Positions 202 through 35,085 of a stretch of 35,123 bases of DNA are shown here, one piece after another (position 1 is the first letter of the stretch; each line of letters begins with the position of its first letter). Position numbers and translations under genes: made by a program. The DNA lies in the IMG/VR virus record IMGVR_UViG_3300038675_000861, positions 1-35,123 of that record. One strand, written 5' to 3'. A model generated the notes under the pieces. It saw nothing but the letters and a program-made list of their open reading frames with translations, was not told the DNA's origin and searched no databases. This stretch comes from a virus. Lineage: Duplodnaviria; Caudoviricetes.

Positions 202-241
202 GTATTTTTTACTGTTCATTTTCTCCGGAAAAAGTTCCTGA

Positions 242-257
242 CTAAAGATGATATCTT
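242..257. repeat. Left copy of 16 bp direct repeat (putative target-site duplication)
   Basis: CTAAAGATGATATCTT is identical to 35070..35085 (17 bp if the preceding A is counted). Confidence 0.85.
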
Positions 258-262
258 TATAG

Positions 263-438
263 AGTATCAAGTAAAATTGCAAATAGTATCACTTTCGTTG
301 CAAATCGCCGTTTTAGGTGAGACCCGAGTTTCAACCTTTTTGCAAATCGGTTTCAACCTTTTTGCAAATTCAGTTTCAACCTTTTTGCAAATCTAGTATC
401 ACCGTTTTTGCAAATCTAGTTTCAACCTTTTTGCAAAT
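263..438 (+). repeat. Left-end array of seven 21-22 bp direct repeats (putative transposase-binding sites)
   Basis: Copies start at 263, 285, 327, 349, 372, 395 and 418; consensus AGTWTCA(N7-8)TGCAAAT; four copies contain GTTTCAACCTTTTTGCAAAT. Confidence 0.85.
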
Positions 439-446
439 CCACCATG

Positions 447-476
447 TTGACATCCTTATATTGATCGATTTATCAT
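447..476 (+). promoter_or_regulatory. Putative sigma70 promoter for the left-end accessory gene
   Basis: TTGACA (447..452), 18 bp, TATCAT (471..476). Confidence 0.4.
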
Positions 477-698
477 AATAAAAATATTGGGAAACACCAG
501 CAGTTTCCCAGGTTTCAAAGGGCATTCTATGCAGGGTCTGTAGGCTGTGACCATAATCGGATTTGGTTGTCTCAATGTCAAGTTTGAATATCTTCCATCT
601 TTCTTATCGTATTGAGCAGAAAGGACTTGACTACCTTTGCGAGGGGTGCAGAGTAGCCCCCATAAATCAACAGTCGGGTAACCGAGAAGGAGATCAAG

Positions 699-1094
699 AT
701 GACCAAGCAAAACAAGAATCACAAGGACCAAACAACGCTGGAGGAGATGGTGAAATCAGGCAGCCAACTTATTCTGAAGCATGACGATGGGACGGAACAG
801 TTAGGAGAAGAATTAGCCAAGCAATCAGGCACATTGAAGTCAGGAACAACAATGAAGGTAATAGAGATGGACAAGAGTGGCTTTGATAATGAGCCTACCA
901 AGTCCGATCCCTACTCTGACGAATACCATTATAAGAACTGGTGGAATCAGTTCCGAGGCCCCTGGCTGCAGTCGGAGAAGATGACTGAGGAGGAGATCAA
1001 AACCAGAGTCGATGATGCCTGGGAATGTGGAGACTATAAAGAAGTGATCAATCATATGGCAGAGATGATCTGCCGCCTCGAAAAGAATCGATAA
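699..1094 (+). CDS. Hypothetical protein (accessory/moron gene)
   Basis: 131 aa ORF with AAGGAG RBS, opposite to the late genes and followed by a terminator. Confidence 0.7.
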   Translation: MTKQNKNHKDQTTLEEMVKSGSQLILKHDDGTEQLGEELAKQSGTLKSGTTMKVIEMDKSGFDNEPTKSDPYSDEYHYKNWWNQFRGPWLQSEKMTEEEIKTRVDDAWECGDYKEVINHMAEMICRLEKNR

Positions 1095-1115
1095 GCAAAA
1101 TCTAAACTATATACT

Positions 1116-1137
1116 AACCCGGTTCTGCCGGGTTTTT
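1116..1137 (+). terminator. Intrinsic terminator between convergent genes
   Basis: AACCCGG-TTCTG-CCGGGTT followed by a T run. Confidence 0.75.
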
Positions 1138-1147
1138 CTCTTGGGCA

Positions 1148-1804
1148 TTATTTGGCGAGGGCAAGTAGCTTGTAGATAGAATCGGTGGCAGTATAGACTT
1201 TGCTAATTCTGATCTTGACGGTAACCTGATTCCCTACGAGCATTACATCAGATATATATAGGAAGGCATCACACTGGTTGGTCAGAATAATATGGGGCAG
1301 CTCCTGATATTCTTTATTCAGGATGTGGGTGATGAACTTGTCTTGAGTAAGCTTGGCAGGGCTGCACTGGCTAATGTCTCCCACTCCCTTATCCTGATCC
1401 TGCAGCTCGTATTGCAGCTTGGAGAGTGATAGTAAGCCATTCTGCAGGTGTTCAGTTCCAATGGCTTCATTGGCGATCTTGGTGCCTGTAACCGCTCCAT
1501 CCAAGATGTGATTGCCAAAGATACAATTGTTCTGCAGACCTCTGGCATCGAGCTTGCCGATGGTGCAGGTCTTGCCGCTGAACTGGCCTTGAGTATTTCC
1601 TATGTTATCCCATATCTCATAGAAGCCGCAATCTGATTCAGATTCTATGCTGATCTCGTAATAACCAGAGTTGGGAGTGTTCTCGATTAGCTTCTTGCCT
1701 TCTGACCAGGATTGACCAGGTCTGAGTAGACGGATATCTATTCCCGATTGAGGCTTCCTTTCGGTGCCTTCCATTGTATAATAGCTGATGGCGAACTTGT
1801 ACAT
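1148..1804 (-). CDS. Putative tail tip/fibre-associated protein
   Basis: Last late gene; contains the short repeat ILDGAVTGTKIANEAIGTEHL, typical of phage tail proteins; CAGGAG RBS. Confidence 0.6.
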   Translation of the reverse strand: MYKFAISYYTMEGTERKPQSGIDIRLLRPGQSWSEGKKLIENTPNSGYYEISIESESDCGFYEIWDNIGNTQGQFSGKTCTIGKLDARGLQNNCIFGNHILDGAVTGTKIANEAIGTEHLQNGLLSLSKLQYELQDQDKGVGDISQCSPAKLTQDKFITHILNKEYQELPHIILTNQCDAFLYISDVMLVGNQVTVKIRISKVYTATDSIYKLLALAK

Positions 1805-1837
1805 TTATGCTCCTGTGTGGATTCTTATTGCTTAGGT

Positions 1838-2299
1838 TTATGCTAAGTGTTGACCGGTAACTGTTTCATCAAAATCGGTGATAATGATAATGCTGAAGTC
1901 AATATAGCCGGGACTGCCTATGTATCTGGATTCCAGACTGAACTTGACCTTAGTGGGATACTCGTGCAGATCATCCGGACACTTAGGTAGTTGAGATATC
2001 GTAACCGGGAACTGACTGCTAAAGCTGTTGTAGGCAGTGTATTCCAGATATAACTTGCCGGGACCGAGGAGGAAGTTCATTAGGCTGTAGTATTCGCTTG
2101 GTTCTAATACAGCTTCCAGATCAAAGGAGTCCTCCCGGTAGGCTTCCCTTCTATGGATAATGGTGGGATCGTAAACGTTCTTCTTTTCAATGCGGTACTT
2201 CTGAGAGGGGCTGTATTCGATCTGCCCATTAGGACAGAAGAAGTAATAGATGCCATCGTCAGCCCAGCGAATAAGCTTGAAGCCTTTTATAACAGCCAT
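1838..2299 (-). CDS. Putative tail protein (distal-tail-like)
   Basis: 153 aa beta-rich ORF overlapping the upstream tail gene; called from position. Confidence 0.55.
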   Translation of the reverse strand: MAVIKGFKLIRWADDGIYYFFCPNGQIEYSPSQKYRIEKKNVYDPTIIHRREAYREDSFDLEAVLEPSEYYSLMNFLLGPGKLYLEYTAYNSFSSQFPVTISQLPKCPDDLHEYPTKVKFSLESRYIGSPGYIDFSIIIITDFDETVTGQHLA

Positions 2300-3774
2300 G
2301 CTTTCACCTTGTATTCATCATCTTGAAAGTTTCGCTCCAGTTCGGTTATGGCATAGATCTTATTCTGAATGCGTATCTTGGACTGGAGTGTAAGATTGTA
2401 TTTGGAGAGATTATCAATAACGGCTTCGCAGCTCCATTTGGAGTCGTGAAAGTCGATCAGATAGTCTTTGATTAAGCTCTGCAGTTGAGTGGTATCGCCT
2501 GCCAGGATATCCAGACAGTTGATCTCCGGCTTCTCCGGATTGCCCCGCTTACTGACAAAGCTGACCACATCCTCTGCATCGATATCTACTATGGTATCGG
2601 AATAAGCATCCTTGTTCTTGAGCACGATCTGACCTTGGGGATTGCTGAAGATGGTGGCATTGTAAAGCATGAGCATAGCCTGCAGAGCCTTGATGTTATC
2701 AGTTTGCTCATCATTGTAGTTCTCATAAGCCTTGCCCGGGAACAGCTTAGCCGGGAAAAGATTGCCATAGAAATGAGCTTCAATCCAGTGATTAACATAA
2801 TGACCGCTGCCGTAGCTGCGTCCATCTATTAATCCAGTTGAAGTTAAGCCACTATATAGGGTGCTCTCCGAGATACCGTTTTTAATATAGAAGCTTATGA
2901 ACTCGTTGGTTGTATTTTCAAGGGAAGCCAGATCATCCACCCAGTCGGTCTTTTCATCATACTCAATCACAACAGGACAGATATTGTTGAAAAACTGGTA
3001 GATGCGTCCCCTATATCGGCCCTGATAGCGGGTAGCGGAAGGACTGGTATAAGTGGCTTTTATCACCTTTTTATAGGCAAAGATGAAGCTGATGCGGTTA
3101 GCTATGCTATCAATCCGGTAGCCCCAAAAAGGTCCCGGCCAGCCTGAGCTGTCATAGCTGTAAGTCCAGCCTCCGGTAGGGTTGGGAAAGGCGAGCAGAT
3201 CATTGAAGTCGATGTGGGCAATAGTAATGAGATCACCGTTACCTATGTTCATAGTAGGCAGAGTGAACTGGTTGGAGTAGGGTATGTTGACTGGTATCTT
3301 CTGCTCAATATCCTGCAGGAAGTAAGCCAGTATCCAGTTAGGCTGATAACCTGCCGTAAGCGAATAGTAGTGAGTGAGATCGGAGTAGAGGGAGAGCAGC
3401 TTAATCTTATCGTAGCAAGTGATCTTGAGAATGCCGGAGGATATATCCAAGCATAGCTGGGAGGTATCGATAATGCCGGAGAAGAACAGGCTGTTATCCC
3501 GATAGACCTTGACCTCAAAGTGGGATATGTAACGCTCGTGCTCGTTATTGCCACTGAGGATGTTATTTTCTATCCAGGTAGTGGGAAAGCATTCGAATAC
3601 TAAACGCTTGGGCTCACGGCTGTAGTTGGAGACCGACTGCAGCTTATCGGCTGAGACGGATAGACTGATGATGGCTCTGTTGGCAGCAGTATCTACCAGG
3701 CTATGCTTGACCTGGTTATAATCGGAAGCATCTGTCTTGCCTTGAATAAAGTCAATCTTAAAGAGGTTAGGCAT
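2287..3774 (-). CDS. Putative tail tip/hub protein
   Basis: 495 aa, directly downstream of the tape measure; segment VKVYRDNSLFFSGII...ILKITCYD resembles tail hub proteins. Confidence 0.6.
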   Translation of the reverse strand: MPNLFKIDFIQGKTDASDYNQVKHSLVDTAANRAIISLSVSADKLQSVSNYSREPKRLVFECFPTTWIENNILSGNNEHERYISHFEVKVYRDNSLFFSGIIDTSQLCLDISSGILKITCYDKIKLLSLYSDLTHYYSLTAGYQPNWILAYFLQDIEQKIPVNIPYSNQFTLPTMNIGNGDLITIAHIDFNDLLAFPNPTGGWTYSYDSSGWPGPFWGYRIDSIANRISFIFAYKKVIKATYTSPSATRYQGRYRGRIYQFFNNICPVVIEYDEKTDWVDDLASLENTTNEFISFYIKNGISESTLYSGLTSTGLIDGRSYGSGHYVNHWIEAHFYGNLFPAKLFPGKAYENYNDEQTDNIKALQAMLMLYNATIFSNPQGQIVLKNKDAYSDTIVDIDAEDVVSFVSKRGNPEKPEINCLDILAGDTTQLQSLIKDYLIDFHDSKWSCEAVIDNLSKYNLTLQSKIRIQNKIYAITELERNFQDDEYKVKAWLL

Positions 3775-3794
3775 AGAACATCCTATGTATCATA

Positions 3795-6764
3795 CTACAC
3801 TTCACTTCTGATCATCTTCCCGGTATCGGCTATCTCCGAGACCTTAACCGGATCATTGGAGAGCGGATCAACATTAACTTCTATAACAGGTTTGGAATCC
3901 ATCACCGTTTGCTTGAGTGAGACAATCTCGTCTTTCAGTGCGGCAATCAGGTCGATCAGGGTATTCATATTGCCTCCGGAAGAGATAGCTCCACCTGCGG
4001 CATAATATGAGCCCATACTGCTGGGAATAGGCACTGAAGGGGTTGGCATGCCGGCAAAGGCAAGCTTCACCTGCTCCAAAGGTGCGAAGTTGAGAAAGTC
4101 AAATAAGTTCCTGCCCAGTGCCTTGACTCGATCCTTGGCAGTGACGTATTCGTCACCCTCGGCTTCAATGAGGATGCCTCCCTGGTTATGGGAAGGTCCG
4201 GTTAAGAGACCTCCGGTAGCTTTCTTTTCAAACTTGGTGGCACTGATCCTGGCGATGTTGGCCATACCGGCAGCTAACGCAGCTGCTGCAGCCGCCACTG
4301 CCAGTCCGGGTCCCACGATTGGAATACCGACCATTGACTTGTAAGCAGCGATAGCTGCTGAGAAGGTATCCACATAGCCTTGAGCCATAGCCGAAGCCTT
4401 CCAAAGCTTAAAGCCACGTTCTGTGTCCTTGTCCTGAGCTGCAGCCAGATCACCGAAGATCTTGGAGGTGCCACTGACTGCCTGAAGCTGGTAGTTGGTT
4501 CTAATGGTATTTAGAGTCTCTTGCTTCTGCCGCTCGATTTCTTCTTCAGTATAACCAGCTTCCAATAGCTTTTCTTTCCTCTTATTATAGTATTTTTCTG
4601 CTTCCAGAAGCTGCTTGCTGTAGCTATCACCGATGTTATCCAAGTCACGTGAGTAGAACTCGTCCCGGATATCCTGCAGTTCCTGCAGCTTGGCCCGCTC
4701 CTCATCCTGACGCTCCTGGAGCAGTTTGACGTGCCGGGCATCTATCTCGGCAATCTGAGCCTGGATCAGCTGCTGCTCTTGTTGAGGCAGGTTCTGCTGT
4801 GCCCAGGCATAATACTCTTCCATACTGGCTTTAAGAGCGGCATAGGAATCAACTCCCAGGTTCTCCAGATTAGAGAAGTAATCAATCTCAGCTTTGTATC
4901 TGGCTTGGACAGCATCCTTCTCTTTGGTAGCAAGTTCATTATCCTGCTGAGTCTTCCAGGTATCGAGGTTCTCCATAGCCTGACGCTCGGCTTCACTGCC
5001 ATCCTGAGTGAACTCATTAATCAGTGCCAGCCGCCTCTGATACTCGGCTTCTATTTTCTCGGTCTCAGTCTGTCTCAGCCTGGCCAGCTCTTCCATCAAG
5101 CGTAACGCTTCTCTGCGTCTTGCTTCTGTTTCTAAGGCCGCAGGACTGGTAGTGTTGTCTCCTTCATCGCCACCACCCTGATCAAAGGTAAGATCAGGCA
5201 CTTCCAACATGGCCTTGCGGTAGGCATCACCCAAGGCTTGAAGATCGTTTTTGGCAGCTTGCAGTTTTCCCGATAAGGCCCCAAACGAGTTGATCGTCCG
5301 TTCCAGTTTAAGCCACTCTCCGTCATTACCGAAATAGGAGGCAGGATTGAAGCCCATTGCATTACGGTCACTGGTTAAGAACTCCCAGTCTACTGATGAT
5401 TTCAACTCCTTTATCCTGGCATTGGCAGCATTGTATTCTGCCCGCTTCTTATCCAGTTCGATCTGCAGTTCTGCTACTCTCTGGACTTGGGCATTATATT
5501 TCTCGCCATAGATCTCGGAGATCTTTTTCTGCACCAGAGCTTCGGAAGCTGCCCGTAAAGCAGTAGCCAGGTCATTGTAGGCCGCTGTCTCTAAGTTGAT
5601 ATTGCCAAGATACTCCGAGTAGTTGTCATTCAGGGACTTGATGACATTCTTCATCTCCCGCTTGTCTGCGGCTGTTAGGGAAGTAGCAGAGCGCAGTTCA
5701 AGTAGCCTGGATGCCAGTAGACTGAACTTTTCAGCTTCAACTGAGACCTGCCGCTGGGCATCCTTTATCTCATCCTTCATGCTCCTTTGAGCTGTACTAA
5801 CCTCATCAGTCTTGTTGGATGCTGCTGCCAGTCCGAAGCCCAGTACAGACAAAGCCCCCACAGCAATGCCGATGATTCCGGCTACCGGGTTCATGGCTAC
5901 CTGCAGAGCATGATAGGCTGCTGTGAGAGCGGTTATCGTAGTGGTGACAGTTCCGATAACCGGTATAGCAATCACAATCCCTGTCACGAAGCCTTTCATT
6001 ACAGGAGACAGGCTGTTATAAGCATCCATGAGCAGTTTCAGACCCTTGAGCAGAGGGTTGATCAGAGTGGTCAGCATATCTCCCACCGTCTCTTGGATAT
6101 CTCCCCAGGCATTGGCATTCTGCAAACGCAAGTCAGCCAGAGCTACTGCTGTTCCGCCATAGTCTTCGCTAAGCTTCTCAACCAGATAGGATACACCTTC
6201 GGTCTTGAGACGGGTATCATCCAGTTCAATGCCATATCTGCCAAGCATCTCGGTATGGCCGTTCAGAGCTCGGCCCATAAGATCAAATGCGCTTTCAACT
6301 GACATCCCGGTGGCTTTATCAGCTTCTGTAAAGTCCAGCAGTACCGGCACAAGCTGTTGAATCTCATCCTTGTTCAGTTTGAAGGTCTGGGAGAGTTTGG
6401 ACATCAAAGACAGCAGTTTGTCATCCTCGAAGTTGGTGACTGACTGCATAGAAGATGCGAAGTTTGCCATTTCGTCAGCCGCTTCGCCGAAGGCTATGGA
6501 AGCCAACTTCATGGCTTGACGCTGTCCCAAGGAGGCATCAAGCAGATCGTTCATATATCTAACAAGACCGCCTACAACCTGGAGAACACCATCAACTGCT
6601 ATTTTTACATCACGAATGGTAGCCAGAGCCTGTTCCGCTGTAATCTTAACCGCAGCAGGTTTTTCCACTACAGACTGGGTGGACTCCACCTCCTGCTTGA
6701 CTTCCGCAAGCTTGAGGTTAGCGTCATTAGTGACGAGGACGAGTTTAAAGGTTAGGTCTGGCAT
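3795..6764 (-). CDS. Tail tape measure protein
   Basis: 989 aa, Ala-rich, helical/coiled-coil, with hydrophobic segments and C-terminal ATGG/AAGG motifs. Confidence 0.9.
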   Translation of the reverse strand: MPDLTFKLVLVTNDANLKLAEVKQEVESTQSVVEKPAAVKITAEQALATIRDVKIAVDGVLQVVGGLVRYMNDLLDASLGQRQAMKLASIAFGEAADEMANFASSMQSVTNFEDDKLLSLMSKLSQTFKLNKDEIQQLVPVLLDFTEADKATGMSVESAFDLMGRALNGHTEMLGRYGIELDDTRLKTEGVSYLVEKLSEDYGGTAVALADLRLQNANAWGDIQETVGDMLTTLINPLLKGLKLLMDAYNSLSPVMKGFVTGIVIAIPVIGTVTTTITALTAAYHALQVAMNPVAGIIGIAVGALSVLGFGLAAASNKTDEVSTAQRSMKDEIKDAQRQVSVEAEKFSLLASRLLELRSATSLTAADKREMKNVIKSLNDNYSEYLGNINLETAAYNDLATALRAASEALVQKKISEIYGEKYNAQVQRVAELQIELDKKRAEYNAANARIKELKSSVDWEFLTSDRNAMGFNPASYFGNDGEWLKLERTINSFGALSGKLQAAKNDLQALGDAYRKAMLEVPDLTFDQGGGDEGDNTTSPAALETEARRREALRLMEELARLRQTETEKIEAEYQRRLALINEFTQDGSEAERQAMENLDTWKTQQDNELATKEKDAVQARYKAEIDYFSNLENLGVDSYAALKASMEEYYAWAQQNLPQQEQQLIQAQIAEIDARHVKLLQERQDEERAKLQELQDIRDEFYSRDLDNIGDSYSKQLLEAEKYYNKRKEKLLEAGYTEEEIERQKQETLNTIRTNYQLQAVSGTSKIFGDLAAAQDKDTERGFKLWKASAMAQGYVDTFSAAIAAYKSMVGIPIVGPGLAVAAAAAALAAGMANIARISATKFEKKATGGLLTGPSHNQGGILIEAEGDEYVTAKDRVKALGRNLFDFLNFAPLEQVKLAFAGMPTPSVPIPSSMGSYYAAGGAISSGGNMNTLIDLIAALKDEIVSLKQTVMDSKPVIEVNVDPLSNDPVKVSEIADTGKMIRSEV

Positions 6765-6771
6765 ATTTGTA

Positions 6772-6801
6772 TTGACAGTGAAGATGTTACGATATTATTA
6801 A
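6772..6801 (+). promoter_or_regulatory. Putative promoter of the 6830 moron
   Basis: TTGACA at 6772..6777, then TATTATTAA at 6793..6801 (spacing 15 or 18, non-optimal). Confidence 0.45.
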
Positions 6802-6829
6802 CATACAAACACCATACAGGAGTAAATAT

Positions 6830-7270
6830 ATGACTTGTACAGTTGATTGGAATGCTGTGGCAACGGGTTCCCAAGCATTGATTTTGATAATTGGGTTTTA
6901 CTTTACACATAAACAACTCAAGCATCAAACACTAGATTCCAAAGCAAGAACTATAATCGATTTGAAAAGATTGTTTCATGACTATTTGGATGTAACAATA
7001 GCTCTTAGGCCTGGAGGAAGATGGTCTGAACAAGTTCCAGAAGGAGCAGAAGCATGGGGCGCAATCGATAACTATCTCGGTCTTTTTGAACACTGCGAGT
7101 ATTTGATATCCATGAATATGATTGATCTCGACTTTTTTAGACGATCTCATAGTGTGAAACTTATGAATGCAGTGTTAAACAAACCTGTTAGGAATAAAAT
7201 ACAGTCAGAAAGAAAGAATTGGATCGATCTGCTACATCTATGCCAAAGACTGAACATTGAAGTCTTCTAA
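6830..7270 (+). CDS. Membrane-anchored moron protein (DUF4760-like)
   Basis: AT-rich, antisense to the late operon, AGGAG RBS, N-terminal TM helix, YLGLFE...ID motif. Confidence 0.7.
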   Translation: MTCTVDWNAVATGSQALILIIGFYFTHKQLKHQTLDSKARTIIDLKRLFHDYLDVTIALRPGGRWSEQVPEGAEAWGAIDNYLGLFEHCEYLISMNMIDLDFFRRSHSVKLMNAVLNKPVRNKIQSERKNWIDLLHLCQRLNIEVF

Positions 7271-8043
7271 TAATTCCTAATCAACAACTCAATCTCCGTC
7301 TGGCAAGCTCCAGATACAGAGTACTGTGTCTCTACTTCCTCAATGATGCAGCCATCGTATAGCTGCTTGATGTAAGGATCGTTGTTATAAGATAGCAGGA
7401 ACTTGCCTTTGATCTGCTTAAGTGTTTCGGCCAGCTCTTCATGCTGGTTGAAGACATCTGCGTCTTCACGCTTGTAGAGGTGTTCCTTAGTATAGTAGGG
7501 AGGGTCCAGATAAAAGAAGGTATAAGGATGGTCGAACTTGGCTACTATCTTTTCCCAAGGCTGCTTTTCGATGATCACATCGCGTAAGCGTTCCGAGGAT
7601 GCTTTAACCTTTTCCAGATTTCTTAAGGGCATATACTTGTAACCATGATTAATGCAGAAGTTCTTGCTTCTTGAGCCATAGCTGCAGGCGAGGTTGTAGT
7701 AGAACTTGATCGCTCTTTCCAACTCTGTTCTGGGCTCATACTTCAGGAAGTTATCAAACATCTCTCTGGAGATTAGATAGTTGTTCAGCTCGGTTACGAA
7801 TGCTTCCGGGTGGTTCTGGATATACTTCCAGAAGTTGACCAGATCACCATTGATATCGTTATAGACCTCGGTATAGTAGCTCTTTTGGGAGAGCTGCCAG
7901 TCTTCCTTGTTAGCGCTCTTCCCAAATAGTATCCAGGCAGCACCGCCAAAGACTTCGCAGTAGATGTCATGCTTGGGGATAAGCGGTAGGATCTTCTTGC
8001 GAAGGATACGCTTACCGCCTACCCAGGAGATAATAGAGTTCAT
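7267..8043 (-). CDS. DNA N6-adenine methyltransferase (D12/Dam class), copy 2
   Basis: WVGGK, EVFGGAA, NDIN and YLDPPY motifs. Confidence 0.92.
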   Translation of the reverse strand: MNSIISWVGGKRILRKKILPLIPKHDIYCEVFGGAAWILFGKSANKEDWQLSQKSYYTEVYNDINGDLVNFWKYIQNHPEAFVTELNNYLISREMFDNFLKYEPRTELERAIKFYYNLACSYGSRSKNFCINHGYKYMPLRNLEKVKASSERLRDVIIEKQPWEKIVAKFDHPYTFFYLDPPYYTKEHLYKREDADVFNQHEELAETLKQIKGKFLLSYNNDPYIKQLYDGCIIEEVETQYSVSGACQTEIELLIRNY

Positions 8044-9252: not shown

Positions 9253-9266
9253 AGAATAGTCCTTTT

Positions 9267-9467
9267 TCAGCTGCCAAAGAACATCTTGAGGGCAATGCCC
9301 AGCAGCAGGAAGAACTGGGAGGTGGAGACGCTCAGAAGTATCTTCATGTTCGTCTCCACTCTCGCCATTCTGGTCACCAGTGACTTGCTGCTGTCACCAT
9401 TGCCGTAGATCTCTTCGTGCACACTGTCTATCTTTTCTTTGATTTCAGGTTTACACAGGCAATCCAT
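9267..9467 (-). CDS. Small coiled-coil protein with C-terminal TM (XhlA/holin-accessory-like)
   Basis: 66 aa, RMARVETNMK followed by a hydrophobic tail; AAGGA RBS. Confidence 0.55.
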   Translation of the reverse strand: MDCLCKPEIKEKIDSVHEEIYGNGDSSKSLVTRMARVETNMKILLSVSTSQFFLLLGIALKMFFGS

Positions 9468-26492: not shown

Positions 26493-28045
26493 CAGAAACT
26501 GAACCTCCGGACTTTCACTCTGTTCCTGCCGATATCGTATTCCGAGAAGCGTTCCAGGCATCCAGCCAGAGCATCACAGCCATCGATATAGCCATCAGGA
26601 TAGGTAAGGAACTGACTGATCAGGGTGGGAGTATCCTGTCCCTCTGGGAAAAGCACCTTGGCGGTCTCGATGATGGTCTCGGTTCTCTCAATGCGGAGGT
26701 TCTTGTTGTCCTTGTTATCTATGCGCTTGATTCTATGACTTATAGGTGGCAGATGGTTATCCTGTGCCCACCTGTCAAAGTCAGCCAAGATACGAGCTTG
26801 TCCGTATGTGGTCTCACAGGCAGCTCTGGCTTTCACTCTGTATATCCTATCCAGCTCTTGATAGGCATCATAGTAGTATCGGAAGAACTTGGTGTTCTCA
26901 GTCTGCCGTATCCAGACGTGTATTACATAGAATCTGTTACCATCATAGCCTATGGAGATGATAGCCTTGAAACAGCCTTTCTCTCCCCAAGCAGGATCTG
27001 CATAGAGCCAGACCCGCTTCATCTGAGATGGATCAGGCAGAGATCTATACTTAGTGAACCAGTGGTTCTTGAAGATGTTCCCTTCGATAACCGGCTGCCC
27101 CAGCATCTCTCTTTGATAGCCGGTCAGACCGAACTTGGCTCGCAGGTTGGGCAGAGTGGATGTGGGGTACTGAGCCTCCCAGACAGACTTGCCCTGCTGA
27201 TCTTCGAGCGAGAAGCGCATAATCGCTTTCTGATGCGTCTTTAATGCAATCTGGTATGTAACGTCTAATACTGGATTATCTGCCCGCATTTCGCTTATGA
27301 TGAGCTCCTGGAACTGGCAGATGGAGTAATTGGGGTGCACCAGGTTACCGAGCCAGATGATTCTACCGCCACCCTCAGGTGCCAGTGCCCCGGCAAGTTC
27401 CTGGGAGATCTTCTCCATGCGTCTCTTGCCGATGGACTGGTTACCCATGTTTTCTTCTTTATCGATATCATCACAAACAATCAGTCCAGGTCGCTTAGCT
27501 GTCTTGGGATTGATGGTTCCCCGATGAGACTGTTTTATGCTTCTGGCTCGTATCCTGGCTTTATTCTTGAGATAGAAGTCCAGATCAAAGGTATCCATTG
27601 GTTGCAGCTCCGGATAATCTATGGTGAGCCGCTTATTGTTCTGTAGCTCATGAAGTGTAAACGCTGTGCGTTCCTGTGCCAGATCTATGTCTGCGGCAGT
27701 ATGGATCACATAGCGTTCACCTTTGATGATCATCCAGATGGGATAGACCACTCCCATGAGAACCGTTTTGCCCAGCCCACGAAAACCGGTGATGGCGATG
27801 ATGCCTGAGCCCTTATCAGTTTCATCGAACATAGTCTCATGCGCCGGGCAAAAAGGTAGCGGGAAGATATGCGGAAAATAGGTATGACAGAAGAAAGAGA
27901 AGGCATCCCAACCTGATCCAGTGGTGCGTCTTATCCGTTCTCCCTTGGCTTCGGGATTATCGTCTATAAAAGGCAAGACGGAGATCGTTTTGGATGCGAT
28001 CTCCGCCAGTGCTTTGTTATGCCGCTGGATGAACTTCTTAGGCAT
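26492..28045 (-). CDS. terL: Terminase large subunit
   Basis: FRGLGKT Walker A, LIVCDDID Walker B, YADPA nuclease motif and DGCDAL. Confidence 0.92.
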   Translation of the reverse strand: MPKKFIQRHNKALAEIASKTISVLPFIDDNPEAKGERIRRTTGSGWDAFSFFCHTYFPHIFPLPFCPAHETMFDETDKGSGIIAITGFRGLGKTVLMGVVYPIWMIIKGERYVIHTAADIDLAQERTAFTLHELQNNKRLTIDYPELQPMDTFDLDFYLKNKARIRARSIKQSHRGTINPKTAKRPGLIVCDDIDKEENMGNQSIGKRRMEKISQELAGALAPEGGGRIIWLGNLVHPNYSICQFQELIISEMRADNPVLDVTYQIALKTHQKAIMRFSLEDQQGKSVWEAQYPTSTLPNLRAKFGLTGYQREMLGQPVIEGNIFKNHWFTKYRSLPDPSQMKRVWLYADPAWGEKGCFKAIISIGYDGNRFYVIHVWIRQTENTKFFRYYYDAYQELDRIYRVKARAACETTYGQARILADFDRWAQDNHLPPISHRIKRIDNKDNKNLRIERTETIIETAKVLFPEGQDTPTLISQFLTYPDGYIDGCDALAGCLERFSEYDIGRNRVKVRRFSF

Positions 28046-28187
28046 AACCGGGTAACCCCCCGACGCCCAGGGGGAAGGGCGCTGGGGACCCGGAGGTCGG
28101 AGGACTGACCAGTCCGGGCTGTTGGCTTGGAGGGTAGGTAGGCTTAGGCTGGGGAGGCCTTATGTAGGATGCATAAAAGCTAACCAT
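28038..28187 (-). CDS. Small proline-rich ORF (49 aa) bridging the terminase genes
   Basis: MVSFYASYIRPPQPKPTYPPSQQPGLVSPPTSGSPAPFPLGVGGLPGYA*, overlapping both neighbours by 8 bp; below the ORF-track cutoff. Confidence 0.4.
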   Translation of the reverse strand: MVSFYASYIRPPQPKPTYPPSQQPGLVSPPTSGSPAPFPLGVGGLPGYA

Positions 28188-28629
28188 TTCTTACTCTCAG
28201 ATATTCTGCCAGATCGTGCAGAATGCTTTGGAACTGCTTGAGCAAGGTCTCATGCCCTTTCTCGATCATGAAGTCGGTGACCTGATCCAGGAACTTGACG
28301 ATGTAGTCGTTCAGTTCTTTAGATGGTTGCCGATCCTTCTGATCCTGTTTCATCATGCTCACCAGGCTCTGGATGGCAGTATCGGCAGGGTTCTTGGCAT
28401 ACTCCCGGAGCGCTTGTATGAGTGCCTTCTTGCGGGCAATGGTGATTTCGTGGTCGAGTTGGTTTTCTTCTTTGAAGAGCTCGTCCCACTTGCCGCTCTT
28501 GATCCACTTACGGACGGTGATGTCCGAGACACCGAAGATCACCGCCAGCTCCAGCGGATCGGTCTTGCCGTTCAGATAGGCTTCTTTGCAGTTGTCACGC
28601 TTGATACGGAACTCACGGCTGTTACTCAT
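28180..28629 (-). CDS. Putative terminase small subunit (DUF1804-like HTH)
   Basis: N-terminal HTH (ELAVIFGVSDITVRKW...W), upstream of terL. Confidence 0.7.
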   Translation of the reverse strand: MSNSREFRIKRDNCKEAYLNGKTDPLELAVIFGVSDITVRKWIKSGKWDELFKEENQLDHEITIARKKALIQALREYAKNPADTAIQSLVSMMKQDQKDRQPSKELNDYIVKFLDQVTDFMIEKGHETLLKQFQSILHDLAEYLRVRNG

Positions 28630-28873
28630 ACTCAGGGCGTACCTTGTGCTTTAGCAGATAGAGGTTGAGGTCTTTACCGAAGCAGCGCAGCTGTCCGTTT
28701 TCTTTAGTTCTAAACGCGGGCAGAGGATCGAGGATGTCCCTGATCCAGCGGTAGACGCTGGAACGGTCGACCTTGAGGATATCGGCTATCTCATCGGTGC
28801 GGTAGGTGCGTTCATCCTTGAAAATGTTCATCGTATTCACTTCCTCTGCAGTATTGGTATTCATCGGTGCCAT
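28622..28873 (-). CDS. Excisionase-like HTH DNA-binding protein
   Basis: YRTDEIADILKVDRSSVYRWI...LPAFR...GQLR (alternative start 28831). Confidence 0.8.
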   Translation of the reverse strand: MAPMNTNTAEEVNTMNIFKDERTYRTDEIADILKVDRSSVYRWIRDILDPLPAFRTKENGQLRCFGKDLNLYLLKHKVRPEYE

Positions 28874-28928
28874 TATTCATTCTCCTGTATTTCTTTCAAT
28901 TCGGTTTGCATAAGGATGCCACTCTTTT

Positions 28929-29549
28929 TCAGAGGGCAGGAAAGTTGAGGACGATCTGGCGGTACTGCCCTGACTCGTCACGTTCATAGAAGTTGATGTA
29001 CTGCTTTGTGGATACCACTTGAATGGCCTGGTCGATCAGCTCCATAGCTTCCTTCCAGGTTTTATCCTTGATGTTGTAGCGGCGCAGGCGCAGGATGCGA
29101 TACTTGGCGATCTCGCCTTTCTTATCGACCTGGAAGGCTTCGCTGATGATGGCTCGGAGGTTGACGTTGGAGTCGGCAGACCAGGCCTTGATGCACTCGT
29201 CTATCTTCTGTTTGGCGAGTTGGAGTTCGATCCCGAACTGGATGCGTTCTTTGAACCTGATCTCGACCCGGTACTTGCCGTCAAAGCTGTTGAGGACGGC
29301 ATTGCCCTTCCAATCAAGTCCGTTCTTCTCAGCTACCTGCTGCAGATAAAGCTCCACATCCTCAAAGAACTGGTTCTTGTCCGCTACTATGCGGTCATGC
29401 AGCTTGATAGCCCGGTTGATAGTCTTGGTTACGATGTAGTCCTGCTTGAGAATTTCCGGCCTGATGATCGAGACCGGGATGCTCTGTCCGTTAGCGTCAA
29501 CTTTGGTGGGAATAGGCTTCTTAGCCTTGGGGGTTTTGGGGGTGTCCAT
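28929..29549 (-). CDS. DUF3164-like protein of transposable phages
   Basis: KGNAVLNSFDG, LQLAKQKIDEC, AFQVDKKG and WKEAM; ATG at 29549 with AAGGAG RBS. Confidence 0.8.
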   Translation of the reverse strand: MDTPKTPKAKKPIPTKVDANGQSIPVSIIRPEILKQDYIVTKTINRAIKLHDRIVADKNQFFEDVELYLQQVAEKNGLDWKGNAVLNSFDGKYRVEIRFKERIQFGIELQLAKQKIDECIKAWSADSNVNLRAIISEAFQVDKKGEIAKYRILRLRRYNIKDKTWKEAMELIDQAIQVVSTKQYINFYERDESGQYRQIVLNFPAL

Positions 29550-29970
29550 TAGATGTCTCCTTGTTAGTTGTATTTTTGGCTTTCTTTTCATTCTGTTTGA
29601 TGTAGTTCTGCAGCATAGCTATAACCGCTCTGCGTTCCTTCTTGTTGAGCAGATTCCAGTGAGTTTTGGAATAGTGACTTATCATGAATGCCCGCAGCTG
29701 GGACTCGGTCCAGCCTGCAGTCTTCATGAGATAGAACATATACTTGCCCTGAGCGTCAAAGGTAAAAGCATGGGGTCTGCCATGCTTGCGGTACTTGAGC
29801 AGGAGTGCCTTCAGCTCAGTTAAGCGATCCTCCGGTAAGGCTCTGAGCGATTCACCGTAGCCCAGGCCCTTGATGATGAACCTGAAAGCATCGAGCGGCC
29901 AGTGGAACTTCTTTATCCGGAGGGCATGAATTTCCTGACGTAGTTTCCGTTCCCGCTGTTCCTGAGTCAT
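29521..29970 (-). CDS. GemA/gp16 (DUF1018)-like protein
   Basis: Two helical repeats (IHAL...SLRAL and W...LRAF...L...E...VIAML); position in the early operon. Confidence 0.65.
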   Translation of the reverse strand: MTQEQRERKLRQEIHALRIKKFHWPLDAFRFIIKGLGYGESLRALPEDRLTELKALLLKYRKHGRPHAFTFDAQGKYMFYLMKTAGWTESQLRAFMISHYSKTHWNLLNKKERRAVIAMLQNYIKQNEKKAKNTTNKETSNGHPQNPQG

Positions 29971-29986
29971 AGAATGCCCTCGCTCT

Positions 29987-30523
29987 TTACTTGGGGTTAG
30001 TGGTTTGAGTAGTTTTCTTACTGCGGCTTTTGGGTTGGATGCCGCACTCGGCCCGCTTCTCTCTAATGATGCCTTTCTTGATCACGGAACCGACTTTGAA
30101 GACCATGCCTATGTCCTTGGTATAGTATCCTGACTTGCGGATACCCACCGCATCGACTGAGATCAGAGCTTCCAGGTAGAGATAAGCCCACTGGCGGCTG
30201 CGCTGCATCTTGGCAGCCAACTGCCGGACGCTCTTAATCCGGCTCAGTTCAAGCATTAAGCAGATATCCTGGCAGGCTTTGAGGTCGAATGTCCAGTTGC
30301 CGCAGTGGATGGTTGATACCTTGGCAGCATATCGGCCCCGGTTGGTTACATAGATATCCTCGTATTTGGATATCTTACGGATCACATTGTCTGCGATGAG
30401 CTGATTAAGGCGTTCCTGAACCGCATCCCGGTCTACTCCGGTACATTCACAGATCAGATCTATGTTGAAGTAGCTGACGGAGCGGTCTACGAAGCGGTCG
30501 ATCAGAATGTCTTGCCCATTCAT
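29987..30523 (-). CDS. Hypothetical protein with probable tandem winged-HTH domains
   Basis: ICECTGVDRDAVQERL and SVRQLAAKMQRSRQWAYLYL; ATGA-coupled to the ATPase gene. Confidence 0.65.
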   Translation of the reverse strand: MNGQDILIDRFVDRSVSYFNIDLICECTGVDRDAVQERLNQLIADNVIRKISKYEDIYVTNRGRYAAKVSTIHCGNWTFDLKACQDICLMLELSRIKSVRQLAAKMQRSRQWAYLYLEALISVDAVGIRKSGYYTKDIGMVFKVGSVIKKGIIREKRAECGIQPKSRSKKTTQTTNPK

Positions 30524-31230
30524 AATGCCCCCTGGGTATGGTTCATGGCCTGGATGAGATTGATTTTACCGCTGGATTCAAGCATGTGCATGATCTTGAT
30601 GGCTTTCCTAAGGTTCCCGGCTGCGTTAAAGTGGATATAGTTGACCAGGGACTCCGGGCAGGGGATGTTCATCAGTTCGTTGCCTAACAATCTAATATCG
30701 TCCTTGCTCACCGCTTCAAACTCGTAAAAGTAGTTGCAGCGGTCAAAGTAGTAGGCATTGATCTGGCTGAGCCTGTCCATTGCGTTCTGCATGCCCACCA
30801 GGATCACCACCGCGAGGGTCTCATCTACCAAATCTCTGATCGCTCCGAGTAACTGGGGATAGCGGAAGGCATAATCAATCTCATCGATGATGATGACTGT
30901 CTCCTCATTATTCAGGAGCAGTTGAATACATTGCTTGTAAATATTGTTGGTAGTACCCGCCGGGAGATAATCCCCCATGCCCAGGCTTCGGTACAGGTTC
31001 TGCAGCAGTTCCTTGGCGAAGGTTTTGGGTGTGGTCGTAGCTTCCAGTCTGATATAGACGTAGCCCCGAGTACAGGCGACGCGGCTGGCATAGGTAGTTT
31101 TACCGAGGCCGGGTCTGCCATACAGCATACCCAGTCCCACCATCTCCAGACGGGGACGCTTAAGCAGGAAGTCGATGCACTCATCGGCTTTCTGGACGTT
31201 GTGGATCGGGACAAGTTTTCCTTGCTTCAT
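30520..31230 (-). CDS. MuB/TniB-like AAA+ transposition ATPase
   Basis: GRPGLGKT Walker A, IIIDEID Walker B and GNLR; directly after the transposase. Confidence 0.92.
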   Translation of the reverse strand: MKQGKLVPIHNVQKADECIDFLLKRPRLEMVGLGMLYGRPGLGKTTYASRVACTRGYVYIRLEATTTPKTFAKELLQNLYRSLGMGDYLPAGTTNNIYKQCIQLLLNNEETVIIIDEIDYAFRYPQLLGAIRDLVDETLAVVILVGMQNAMDRLSQINAYYFDRCNYFYEFEAVSKDDIRLLGNELMNIPCPESLVNYIHFNAAGNLRKAIKIMHMLESSGKINLIQAMNHTQGAL

Positions 31231-31240
31231 CTAATCCTCC

Positions 31241-33304
31241 TTATTTGATTCCGATCGTCTTGAGCATTTTCTTGAACTCCTCATCGTCAAAGGGATCGAA
31301 CTCAGTTGATCCTTCGATAACTTCTTGATTTTGATCGTTGGTGGTCTGTTCAGGTTGGCTGGCAGCCATAGCCTGTTCTTGCTCGATTACTATCTGCTCC
31401 AGCCTGGCGATCTCCTCTTCCGGACCCGGGGCGGGAGCCTCGATCATGGGTGATTGTATGAAGGTGGGATTGTGATCGGCTGGGATCTCGTTCATGTAGC
31501 TCATGAGCACCTTATCCACCGACTCCTGATTGTTGCGCACAAAGCTCCGGGTCCGCTGTTCGGTCAGCCGCTGCAGCTTCTTGATCTGGGTGTATTCTTT
31601 ACGGTATTCCTTATGCGACTTGCTGTTCTGCATATCGGCCTGGATGAACGGATGCTGGGTCTGGCGCAGTGAAGCCTGACAGATAAAGACATCCGACTCG
31701 TCATAGACCAGTATCCATCTCGCATCAGCCAGATCGTATCTGATGACCACCGGCTTGCCCATGTGGAAGACCAGATCAGGATGCCAGTACTTAAGCTTGT
31801 TCAGTACGATACCCTCGCTGCGGATGGCTTTGCGTTCTACACTCAGCATCATAAAGTTGAGCCGGGAGGGATTGACCAGCCTATCTTGAGGTTTGGGAGC
31901 CGAGCTGAACACTTCCCAGGGTTTGCGGTTATCCAGTCCCCGGTGGGGAGTGATACCATATACGTATCTGAAATAGTAGCCGATCATCTGCATTGCTTCC
32001 TCAATGGTGGGCGGCTCGCAGGCATAGAGCTTCTTGATCCACTTCTCGTTACGCATCAGAGTGGCGGGTTTGTCAGCTATATCGGCTCCCCGGAAGCTGC
32101 TGATGAAGCGTTCGAACTGCTCCTGGAAGGTCCGGAAGAACCGCTCTATGATCTTGGCTTTGGCATTGTAGCTTTCAGCGAACTGGGCTTTGATCCCCAA
32201 CTTGGGAAAGATGCCGCCCAGTTCCTTGGCCAGGTCATGCCCTTCCCACTGCTCGTGGAACAGCTTGCTTTTGAAGGCCCTGCCATTATCGAGATAGACA
32301 TACTGAGGCAGGGCTCCCCAGTTGAGGAAGCCGTTGCGGAAGGCAGCCTGGATGTGCTGGCTGTCCTCGGTGAAGGCAAGCGTAGCCCCCACCGGATATC
32401 TGGAAGCCCAGTCGAAGACCAGGATCATGGTCATGCGTTGTGCTTTCCCGGTCTTGGGATTGAGGATATCAAAGGCCAGGACATGCCCGTCGGCTACCCA
32501 TACTTCGCCTACGCTTAGTAGTCTGCTATCCCTATGGATGGTCTTTATGATGTGCTCGGCTACGAACTTGCTGCCCTGCCTTGCCTGCTCCCAGATTGCC
32601 AGGTTGTAATCCCGCCATTCTTCAATCCATCTTCTCAGTGTGGGCACTGAACTGGGTGAGTCGATCAGTCCGGACTCGGCTTTGGCTTTCAGGAACTTGA
32701 GAGCGCTGCCGATGCTGATCCGGTTGGGATGCAGCAGGATCGCCAGCAGTACCTTGCCCTCCAGTTCGGTAATCTTGCGCTGCCGCTTCTGATAGCGGTT
32801 GCCATGCAGGAGGGCATACATATCCTGCTCGCTCTCTTCATAGCGTCGCAGCCAGATGCGTAAAGCCCGTTCGGTGCGTTTGCCTTTCAGGGCATAGAGT
32901 TCCGGTGCCAGGGTACCATTATTGTATTCCGCAGTGATCAGTTCCCATTCCCGGCCTTTGGACTCGCTATGCTGAAGCCGTTCCAGCACTGTTGTGCAGA
33001 AGTAGCCCATCAGCTTAGCTTCGTTACCGCATTTGACAGGCACCCGCTCTTGAGGTGTAAAGTCGATGTATTCATCTTCAGGATCGTCCGGAACGCATAA
33101 CTCACTTTCCGGGATGATACTATCATCCGGCTTGGTGATCTTAGCCGGCGGGACAGATGGATCAGGCACCGGTGTAACATTCGGTTTGATCTCCCGGCTC
33201 TTCCCAATCTGGTTAAGCAAATCCTGCTTACCCTTCCAATCGGGATAGATGCTCTGATAAAGCTCCGCGTAGGCCAGAGGATCGATTTCATCATAGATGC
33301 TCAT
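31241..33304 (-). CDS. Mu-like DDE transposase
   Basis: WVADGH (D), YLDNG (D), KIIERFF (E); Mu-transposase C-terminal VVIRYDLAD; GAGGAGG RBS. Confidence 0.93.
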   Translation of the reverse strand: MSIYDEIDPLAYAELYQSIYPDWKGKQDLLNQIGKSREIKPNVTPVPDPSVPPAKITKPDDSIIPESELCVPDDPEDEYIDFTPQERVPVKCGNEAKLMGYFCTTVLERLQHSESKGREWELITAEYNNGTLAPELYALKGKRTERALRIWLRRYEESEQDMYALLHGNRYQKRQRKITELEGKVLLAILLHPNRISIGSALKFLKAKAESGLIDSPSSVPTLRRWIEEWRDYNLAIWEQARQGSKFVAEHIIKTIHRDSRLLSVGEVWVADGHVLAFDILNPKTGKAQRMTMILVFDWASRYPVGATLAFTEDSQHIQAAFRNGFLNWGALPQYVYLDNGRAFKSKLFHEQWEGHDLAKELGGIFPKLGIKAQFAESYNAKAKIIERFFRTFQEQFERFISSFRGADIADKPATLMRNEKWIKKLYACEPPTIEEAMQMIGYYFRYVYGITPHRGLDNRKPWEVFSSAPKPQDRLVNPSRLNFMMLSVERKAIRSEGIVLNKLKYWHPDLVFHMGKPVVIRYDLADARWILVYDESDVFICQASLRQTQHPFIQADMQNSKSHKEYRKEYTQIKKLQRLTEQRTRSFVRNNQESVDKVLMSYMNEIPADHNPTFIQSPMIEAPAPGPEEEIARLEQIVIEQEQAMAASQPEQTTNDQNQEVIEGSTEFDPFDDEEFKKMLKTIGIK

Positions 33305-33617
33305 GCTTGTCCTCCTCGCTGTATTTGTAGATCAAAGCGCTATGCAGGTCTTTGCCATCTACCTGGAGAGTGATCTCAATGAAGCCGGCAGGTACTATGT
33401 TCCTGGTCCGGCAGTCCGCCATCTCCTTTATATATAGGGAAGGTTCGGTCAGCAGGAAGGTCTTCATGACCTTGTAACCGTCCTGCTCAACCAGATGCTT
33501 ATGCACTTCAATCCGATTGCGCTTGATATAGCGCCATACGGTACGGGTGGAGCAGTTCATCAGCTCCGCCGCCCGCTCTATGGTCAGCCAGACTGACCTT
33601 ATCTTGTTCTTGCTCAT
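33291..33617 (-). CDS. HTH DNA-binding protein upstream of the transposase (ORF extends in frame to 33887)
   Basis: WLTIERAAELMNCSTRTVWRYIK; ATG at 33617 has GAGG, the alternative ATG at 33887 has GGGAGG. Confidence 0.75.
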   Translation of the reverse strand: MSKNKIRSVWLTIERAAELMNCSTRTVWRYIKRNRIEVHKHLVEQDGYKVMKTFLLTEPSLYIKEMADCRTRNIVPAGFIEITLQVDGKDLHSALIYKYSEEDKHEHL

Positions 33618-33651
33618 GTTCAGCCTCTGCCAATATTCTTCAACTACAGGT

Positions 33652-33841
33652 AAAACCACTGTGACACCTCCGTTCCGGTGGCGTGTCACAGTGGTTGGAT
33701 AATCTGTCACAGTGGTGCCCTTTTTCAGTCCTGGCGATCTGTCACAGCGTTCAACATATCTACTGATCAGCATCGGCAGCTTTTTTCTCCGATCGGAAGG
33801 GTGTGTGACACCTGTCACAGAGGTCGGTGTGTCACAGTGGT
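33652..33841. repeat. Cluster of seven TGTCACA(GTGG) motifs in both orientations (operator/enhancer-like)
   Basis: Cores near 33659, 33684, 33705, 33740, 33803, 33813 and 33830; perfect 14 bp inverted repeat 33654..33667 / 33683..33696. Confidence 0.8.
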
Positions 33842-34033
33842 CGTCCTTGACCCTATTATCTCCTGGCTCGTAAGTAGTCGCTTTCATAAGCGCCTCCCAT
33901 TAGTTAATGTTGGGTGCTACATTACTGCATCGCAATAACTTGGGAAGTCCTTTCTGCTTCTTCCGAGCACCTTTGCAAACTTGCTGATCCCATTGGAAGA
34001 ATCCGCTGCCGAGTCACACTATGTAATTTTGTC

Positions 34034-34061
34034 TTGACAGAAAAGATAGACAATTTATCTT
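34034..34061 (+). promoter_or_regulatory. Putative repressor promoter (Pc-like)
   Basis: TTGACA, 16 bp, TATCTT. Confidence 0.55.
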
Positions 34062-34073
34062 ATCTACGGATGC

Positions 34074-34102
34074 ATAATATTACCCATACGGCAAATGGTC
34101 AA
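34074..34102 (-). promoter_or_regulatory. Putative early promoter (Pe-like)
   Basis: Minus strand TTGACC, 17 bp, TATTAT. Confidence 0.65.
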
Positions 34103-34116
34103 TGAATATCTTGACC
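34097..34116. promoter_or_regulatory. Palindromic candidate repressor operator
   Basis: GGTCAA-N8-TTGACC overlapping the early promoter -35. Confidence 0.45.
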
Positions 34117-34130
34117 TTATAGGAGGAAAA

Positions 34131-34859
34131 ATGGACCCCAACGATATCGGCAGCAGGCTGGCAATGCTGATCAAAGCAATGAATTTGAAGCAATATCAGT
34201 TCACCGAAAAATTTGGTATTTCTGCCAATTCTTTGGACCGCTACAAGAACAATGAGAGGTATCCGGACCCTCAGTTTCTGACCAGATTGATTGATGCCGG
34301 AGTGAATGTGAACTGGCTGCTAAGAGGGGAAGGCAGCATGTTCATCCTGGCTCCCTGGGAACTCGGACCGGATGTCAGAACCACCAAGAAAGTGCAGATC
34401 GTAGATGGCAAACCGGTCTTAATGAATGATTTTGATACCACTTACGTGCGGACTTCAATCTTCCCGATTGTAGCGGAAATATCCGCTGGACCTCTTCTTG
34501 AAGTTCCGGAAGGCATAGAGCCGGCGGAATCAGTCGAAGTACCCACTCGCTATATTCCCTATGGCACTGACAGCTATGTAGCCTTTCGCATCAATGGACA
34601 GAGCATGGAACCGCAGATCCTGCACGAAGACATAGTCTTAATCAAGAAGCAAGTCACTTGGGAGGGCACGAATGGGAAGATATGTGCAGTGCGTTACGAG
34701 ACTGGTATCACCTTGAAAAGAATACACTTCGATGAGACACATAAAGGAATCGCCCTCCAACCCCTCAATAAAGACTTTCGAATCGAGTTCATAGACGCTG
34801 ATCAGAGTCAGTGGCTCACGCTGATAGGCACTTTGGCACTTCAGTTACGATTCTATTAA
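34131..34859 (+). CDS. cI/LexA-type repressor (XRE HTH plus S24 peptidase)
   Basis: AGGAGG RBS before ATG 34131; HTH, Ala-Gly site (ISAG), GQSMEP serine and TLKR lysine. Confidence 0.92.
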   Translation: MDPNDIGSRLAMLIKAMNLKQYQFTEKFGISANSLDRYKNNERYPDPQFLTRLIDAGVNVNWLLRGEGSMFILAPWELGPDVRTTKKVQIVDGKPVLMNDFDTTYVRTSIFPIVAEISAGPLLEVPEGIEPAESVEVPTRYIPYGTDSYVAFRINGQSMEPQILHEDIVLIKKQVTWEGTNGKICAVRYETGITLKRIHFDETHKGIALQPLNKDFRIEFIDADQSQWLTLIGTLALQLRFY

Positions 34860-34899
34860 ATGAGATAAATATTTCAAAAAATCTGATGTTTTGAAAATA

Positions 34900-35069
34900 A
34901 CCTAAAACGAGGGCAAAATTGAAGGAATCGTGATATCGAAACGTCCAGAAACGTCCAAAAACCACTGTGACACAGTCTAAAGCCAGTCCTATCTAACTCC
35001 GCATCCTATAAACCTTTAAGACCTCTGTGACATGTGATATCGATTTGAAGATTTGGGTGAGAACTTATA
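34900..35069. repeat. Right-end region with degenerate end repeats, a 10 bp tandem repeat and two CTGTGACA motifs
   Basis: GTGATATCGA at 34930 and 35034; GAAACGTCCA x2 (34938..34957); CTGTGACA near 34965 and 35025. Confidence 0.65.
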
Positions 35070-35085
35070 CTAAAGATGATATCTT
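35070..35085. repeat. Right copy of 16 bp direct repeat
   Basis: CTAAAGATGATATCTT is identical to 242..257. Confidence 0.85.

Follow-up and report, generated by a model that had tools for sequence, protein, structure and literature searches.

The prophage and its insertion site

The window analysed here, i.e., the whole stretch of 35,123 nucleotides of IMG/VR virus record IMGVR_UViG_3300038675_000861, contains a Mu-like transposable prophage of 34,812 bp (258..35069), recognized by its gene families, termini and relatives, which begins and ends with 5'-TATA...TATA-3' and lies between two copies of a 16-bp target duplication. The element is of Mu type and comes from a family in Cloacimonadota; the transposase of this family works on TA as well as TG ends and as a rule makes a 5-bp duplication. 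The 16-bp duplication in the window probably results from a single aberrant insertion, in which an ordinary 5-bp transpososome joined the two ends one extra helical turn apart (5+11 bp). The insertion site is intergenic: the host flank at positions 1..241 is AT-rich DNA between divergent genes, and downstream of it are a gene for a secreted-type protein and then a gene for an Obg-like GTPase (both named from translations alone).

Two minus-strand genes characterize the element, namely a MuA/TnsB-type DDE transposase of 687 amino acids (31241..33304; phrog_310 1e-80, PF09299, PF00665 (rve)) and, directly downstream, a MuB-like AAA+ ATPase, transposition protein B (30520..31230; phrog_296 1e-25, AAA_22). 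The transposase matches TnsB in sequence (1e-11); the alignment places D272, D339 and E387 on the catalytic motifs of TnsB, and all 47 homologues compared keep these three residues. The predicted fold matches TnsB and the MuA 4FCY transpososome chains with low TM-scores, the AlphaFold model (mean pLDDT 63, pTM 0.36) being too poor for geometry. An earlier reading of the same DNA, referred to below as the original prediction, had proposed a Mu-family transposable prophage with a DDE transposase and an AAA ATPase and without a recombinase. The family and fold matches bear this out, and no match to tyrosine or serine recombinase families occurs in the 38 main and 39 minor open reading frames (ORFs) scanned, 77 of the 123 in the window.

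Further features place the element among Mu-like phages: virion, packaging and lysis genes lie between its ends (many ORFs of the tail region have no family), its size falls in the 33–40-kb genome class, insertion sites are unrelated and no integrase was found. The 5–6-bp duplication typical of the group is seen in 47 cases within the family, the window copy having 16 bp. The termini differ from 5'-TG...CA-3' in reading TATA at both ends, which excludes the element from the strict Mu definition only, and Leptospira prophages have been accepted with the same exception (PMC8705779). The element is neither an att-core prophage, for which one would expect a conserved att core and a recombinase of the tyrosine or serine type, nor a member of the IS1202/IS481 group of insertion sequences (IS) of ~1.5 kb with a single transposase and TGT ends, being a 34.8-kb prophage with an ATPase and TATA ends.

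The left, transposase-distal end (258..440, plus strand) consists of a TATAGAG terminus and seven 22–23-bp repeats ending in TGCAAAT, which by analogy with Mu and Tn7 ends are likely transposase-binding sites. The right, transposase-proximal end (35041..35069, minus strand) has the terminus TATAAGTTCTCACCC and one clear site of the left-end motif. Read inward, both termini start with 5'-TATA, from position 258 on the plus strand and from 35069 on the minus strand. Compared without gaps, 17 of their first 28 bases match (counted by eye), and a gapped comparison gives 26 matches in 38 columns; the earlier estimate of about 23 of 36 was a fair one. The right terminus can be set independently of the repeat, as the alignments of 11 viral relatives run to this end too and beyond it give way to unrelated flanks; this fixes the end as TA-3' instead of CA-3', as had been proposed.

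The 16-mer CTAAAGATGATATCTT occurs on the plus strand at 242..257 in host DNA and at 35070..35085, abutting both termini as originally described. The longest exact repeat is 17 bp (241..257 and 35069..35085), of which position 35069 still belongs to the element as its terminal base; the duplication is therefore 16 bp. Since a repeat of 17 bp or longer was also reached in 2 of 30 shuffles of the window, the weight of the match lies in its position directly outside both ends. In 46,360 cross-comparisons of 305 family ends (window excluded), matches of at least 10 bp were limited to one true pair (15 bp) and one spacer between back-to-back ends. Strand transfer determines the bases at the junctions: on the top strand it attached the right end ahead of CTAAA, and on the bottom strand it attached the left end behind ATCTT.

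We consider it very likely that the duplication is real, based on empty alleles and on contigs covering both junctions. The empty allele that the original prediction had called for exists: the site with one copy of the 16-mer is present in three metagenome contigs (L133-L135), which share 93–97% identity with the left flank and 54/54 bases with the right flank, and in a contig of sequencing run X3. Scans of viral contigs with the empty-allele and left-end patterns gave no match. Left and right junctions are bridged in unbroken contigs of the public runs X1 and X2 (one sample, perhaps the source of the window) and X7 (a second sample), the two junctions having similar depths (7.8/8.4, 13.7/17 and 7.8/6.1, respectively). 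No junction offset by 11 bp is listed among the contigs of the runs checked (X1, X2, X3, X7). The 16-mer is host target DNA, as had been supposed; the relatives with the same right end lack it there.

The remaining genes are arranged in blocks, assigned by family searches. A CI-like repressor with a helix-turn-helix (HTH) domain and an S24 peptidase is encoded on the plus strand (34095..34859), and an early operon (28622..33887, minus strand) contains HTH proteins and DUF3164 on both sides of the transposase and ATPase genes. A motif around CACTGTGACAC is repeated at 33652, 33683, 33829 and 34958, i.e., to the left and right of the repressor gene and close to the right terminus; its copies are candidate operator or enhancer sites. 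The genes for the small and large terminase subunits and a Mu F-like head protein (25617..28629) are on the minus strand, as are the late genes (3795..15266), including lysozyme, a portal protein (PF04860), a fusion of an XkdF-type protease with the capsid protein, two Dam-type methyltransferases and a tape-measure protein. The two methyltransferase genes (D12) are in tandem at 7267-8801. On the opposite (plus) strand, the slot at 15428..25624 between the lysozyme and Mu F genes carries 10 kb of cargo, comprising a type I restriction-modification system (M, S, R) and a PDC-M63-like pair; the restriction-modification operon holds two inserted genes. This cargo is absent from the nearest relative, which has other DNA in the same slot.

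Ends and target duplications in the Cloacimonadota family

Transposase homologues with a named taxon belong to Cloacimonadota, as do most of the genome loci, and a transposase match is found in 75 of 232 Cloacimonadota species genomes. In cultured phages, the closest transposases reach no more than 30% identity, and this across roughly half of the protein. The nearest prophage, G001, is 85–97% identical to the window over the phage body outside the cargo, from position 598 on. Its transposase is 97% identical to that of the window, none of the 19 differing residues lying between 234 and 593, and it has a 5-bp scar. Positions 258-597 of the window represent an end type other than that of G001; the window's left-end type is joined to the same inner module also in G052, G050, G057 and G048, and it is further found on phage-less family members of 10–15 kb. 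The module itself (598-1094) consists of a conserved non-coding stretch and a 131-amino-acid ORF without a family. Many family members have it immediately inward of the far end, where it adjoins end types of several kinds.

Family ends were called with a weight matrix seeded on aligned ends, where the first T was required and the seeds were mostly TA. In 15 genomes the end patterns gave 249 hits compared to 6 for reversed controls. Among 435 distinct family ends in the fetched loci, 346 start with TA, 82 with TG and 7 with TT, the share of TA being biased upward by the required T and the mostly TA seeds. TA termini are family-wide. The shared end motif bounds prophages of 27–35 kb, phage-less elements of 2–15 kb (one of which, L047, retains transposase and ATPase) and units of ~340 bp. 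Mixed TA/TG termini account for 8 and TG/TG termini for 3 of the 47 elements with 5-bp duplications. Two elements of 34–35 kb in G123:C1 (L144/L145, L147/L148) have one TA and one TG end each and clean 5-bp scars, from which we conclude that a single transposition system tolerates both terminal dinucleotides. Four elements of about 4 kb with TATG-type far ends (L052, L053, L054, L253) all lack a matching scar, owing either to multicopy misassembly or to a different true end.

The census of target duplications used convergent end pairs on the same contig within 46 kb, chosen among the pattern hits listed, with one end (G006:C2, TTT start) added by hand. A subset of the listed pairs was fetched, giving 159 distinct pairs to which all figures refer; many of these are not true partners. 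Duplications of 5 bp were found in 47 pairs, of 4 bp, 3 bp and 15 bp in one pair each, and of 0–2 bp in 108, the window with 16 bp completing the set; no pair had 6–14 bp or more than 16 bp. Among the 28 pairs of at least 25 kb, 19 have 5 bp, 8 have 0–1 bp and one is the window. With the window left out, a long scar is found in 1 of 48 scars (95% interval 0.05–11%). The tabulation of homologous termini suggested with the original prediction upholds the TA ends, which predominate, and gives a normal length of 5 bp, not 16.

Twenty viral records have both the transposase and the far-end gene, and all 4 that include both termini have 5-bp duplications. The 47 pairs with 5 bp include six 10–12-kb elements with the TATAGAG left end of the window. 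One family member of 10.2 kb, L041, has the 5-bp scar AGTAG. The 5-bp targets favour N-Y-N-R-N (25/47, p=3e-5 against 0.25). Matching of 137 ends across contigs of four fragmented genomes revealed no further long repeat; 5-bp matches were not counted in this comparison, where a between-genome control gives 19/6992 by chance.

A second long scar is found in G079:C16:73825-98730 (L258, L259, L405, L406), where an element of 24.9 kb is abutted at both ends by a 15-bp repeat. The element has no transposase and is a defence island between phage-derived ends, its cargo comprising an SspABCD-FGH phosphorothioate defence cluster and a PD-T4-4/PDC-M47-like pair. Its pairing of end types occurs in other family members. 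Both the end subtype and the genome differ from those of the window, and the 15-mer has no sequence in common with the 16-mer. The outer 5-mers of the repeat, CCTGA and GCTGA, are near-identical and 10 bp apart.

Family ends also occur back to back with spacers of 3–44 bp (11 cases, L071, L038, L191, L183 and L422 among them), which suggests insertion beside existing ends, unlike Mu, which shows target immunity. A 17-bp hit in the random-pair control was rejected as a duplication because it is such a spacer, and hits of 26, 9 and 7 bp were rejected likewise. Individual MITE-like units of ~340 bp (L003:1135-1475, L173, L256, L168, L170 and many others) almost never have a 5-bp scar of their own, only 2 of 70 pairs shorter than 1 kb showing one. 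Where two units enclose cargo, such a scar is seen at their outer ends (G033:C12, G061:C78), and G029:C33 and C74 share the end type of these two; the units seem to move as composite transposons around cargo.

Origin of the long duplication

We infer that the duplication arose as follows. The transposase would bind the 22–23-bp end repeats, nick after TA-3' and, together with the ATPase, capture a bent target. In a small fraction of insertions the two ends would attack in turn, the second striking the same face of the helix 10–11 bp beyond the first; alternatively, the target would loop out by one turn at this step. Gap filling would then yield a duplication of 15–16 bp. A single event with a 16-bp stagger explains both junction positions in one step. 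The observed lengths argue for this mechanism in being discrete (5, 15 and 16 bp, with none between or above), where 15 and 16 bp equal 5 bp plus one helical turn. Another argument is that the transposase is identical at residues 234-593 to that of G001, which left a 5-bp scar. The evidence for a 15–16-bp class comes from two cases.

Several observations weigh against a single wide insertion. There are two long scars, one of which is the window itself, and the clustering at 15–16 bp therefore rests on n=2. The scar in G079:C16 comes from one assembly, unchecked against reads, and its empty allele was not found in the 232 genomes, which yielded only its own right junction. As many as 108 of the 159 pairs, including 8 of the 28 pairs of at least 25 kb, show 0–2 bp, indicating that flanks get rearranged or misassembled in this family. 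All four runs belong to a single study and were assembled into contigs from short reads; the window itself may derive from one of them, and no single molecule spans the 35 kb. Finally, the filtered contigs of X3 include a left-junction contig and an unbroken empty-allele contig but no right-junction contig. The X3 left-junction contig reaches 30 bases into the element, just under the bridging threshold; the missing right junction is a gap in the filtered contigs and weighs neither way.

The most serious alternative, which we nevertheless regard as unlikely, is that related elements made two ordinary 5-bp insertions, one at CTAAA and the other 11 bp away at ATCTT, in different strains or on sister chromosomes, and that homologous recombination inside the elements then joined them. 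The product would combine one element's left end with the other's right end and be flanked by a repeat of 16 bp. This would fit the mosaic structure of the prophage, which is G001-like from 598 on and has another end type at 258-597. It would also fit the clustering of family ends, often 3–44 bp apart in the 11 back-to-back cases, the preferred pyrimidine at position 2 of both outer 5-mers, and the insertion hotspots of 13–34 bp described for transposable phages (PMC5977238). However, the same joint between left end and inner module in G052, G050, G057 and G048 is not peculiar to the window copy, which weakens the mosaic left end as a sign of recombination at this site. Moreover, four runs and the metagenome scan gave no 5-bp allele at either position, and two hits in the same orientation within 11 bp would be required, and again (10 bp apart) for G079.

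Two further possibilities appear improbable. In the first, a hairpin assists the event: the stem of the palindrome AAGAT-N3-ATCTT, correctly noted in the repeat before, extrudes and brings bonds 16 bp apart into both active sites. The palindrome does lie wholly inside the duplicated DNA, and only 28 of the 1078 16-mers of the empty intergenic region (2.6%) hold such a stem, but a 5-bp AT-rich stem would be weak and the 15-bp scar in G079 has none. In the second, hardly better placed, assembly has fused the sequences of two strains whose insertions lie 11 bp from each other. A short-read metagenome with many similar elements, the difference in end types and the lone left junction of X3 speak for such a chimera. 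It also predicts two more junction contigs, of which none is listed, and the junctions at the site in X1, X2 and X7 are those of the window alone, at matching depth.

The original prediction took the window for a lineage with a fixed stagger of ~16 bp and a different transpososome geometry. The window's own duplication and the IS1202-group elements with fixed duplications of 16–28 bp (PMC10132070) speak in favour of such a model, which is now very hard to maintain: 47 related insertions are exactly 5 bp, including the nearest prophage, which shares the catalytic core. A fixed 16-bp stagger is refuted at the family level, and with it the claim of a new 16-bp transpososome is removed. That a site-specific recombinase supplied in trans used the 16-mer as its att core is next to inconceivable, as the length of the 16-mer, typical of att cores, is countered by the lack of recombinase matches in the 77 ORFs scanned, by relatives with the same right end in unrelated flanks without the 16-mer and by the position of the repeat against transposon termini. 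A resident copy transposing replicatively, within its own molecule or into a sister chromosome, would on paper give deletions or tandem copies instead of this structure, and this reading was rejected.

Comparison with known transposition systems

The Cloacimonadota family resembles Mu and the saltovirus phages in having a DDE transposase with a Mu C-terminal domain and an AAA+ ATPase, a repressor beside one end, repeated 22–23-bp end sites, a genome of ~35 kb, scattered insertion and a 5-bp duplication as the family rule. The target bias N-Y-N-R-N is similar to that of Mu. Unlike Mu, the family ends are mostly TA...TA, with some TA/TG or TG/TG, and the window copy has a 16-bp scar. The PF04860 portal and XkdF-type protease of the window also set it apart, the head module of Mu being different. 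The best sequence and fold matches of the transposase are to TnsB of Tn7 and CAST V-K, systems with a 5-bp duplication and tandem end sites. In contrast to these, the window has no TnsA, TniQ or Cas match, carries phage genes and has no fixed target. A literature search, which covered classic Mu work thinly, found no report that Mu-like elements or TnsB systems make target duplications of long or otherwise unusual length, and one with thin coverage of subscription journals found none of transposable prophages in Cloacimonadota.

TA ends in transposable prophages are already known from Leptospira: of 74 complete elements of this kind, 28 carry TA at each end and duplicate 6 bp, and the authors raise the question of whether TA-ended prophages occur in further bacteria (PMC8705779). 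The elements described here resemble the WETA1 group of that article in size, in TA at both ends and in a standard-looking transposase. They differ in phylum and in duplication length (5 bp versus 6 bp). Furthermore, TA-TA and TG-CA prophages form two sets in the Leptospira data, whereas single Cloacimonadota elements can mix TA and TG. A large Cloacimonadota family of TA-ended Mu-type elements with 5-bp scars and mixed TA/TG ends answers the question left by that article and provides naturally occurring variants with which the importance of the terminal CA could be studied.

Discrete duplication classes of 4–6, 15–17 and 24–29 bp are described for IS481, IS1202 and IS481EU, sometimes within one family; for IS481EU-7_TV the duplications are 7 x 4, 1 x 5, 2 x 15 and 1 x 24 bp, and the authors note the 10-bp step between classes and leave the mechanism open (PMC10045372). 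An IS1202-family transposase has been modelled on TnsB and MuA (PMC10132070). From the natural 15-bp and 16-bp scars it seems that the cuts of a Mu-family enzyme are at times spaced one helical turn further apart, which links it to these unexplained lengths. Wider cutting bears on models of target capture, on prophage-boundary callers that assume 5–6 bp and on by-products of TnsB-based insertion tools. More tentatively, Mu-type, ATPase-assisted transpososomes may have a second, helically phased mode of strand transfer (5+10/11 bp), used at the percent level in nature, which would be the same phenomenon as the 5/15/25-bp classes of IS481/IS1202. If so, long repeats at Mu-like prophages and Tn7-like elements may be misread as att sites or missed, and the TA-ended family of Cloacimonadota, in which a single end motif is common to prophages, cargo transposons and MITE-like units, would provide a ready test system. 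The Cloacimonadota family has a DDE transposase in common with IS481, IS1202 and IS481EU, and its two long cases resemble them in having scars one ~10-bp step above the short class. Those elements differ in being single-gene IS with TGT ends, without ATPase or phage genes, in which the long class is often the norm (PMC10045372, PMC10132070). In the Cloacimonadota family the long class is a rare minority in a Mu-type, ATPase-assisted system, and the likeness to IS481/IS1202 is one in a single respect rather than a matter of membership.

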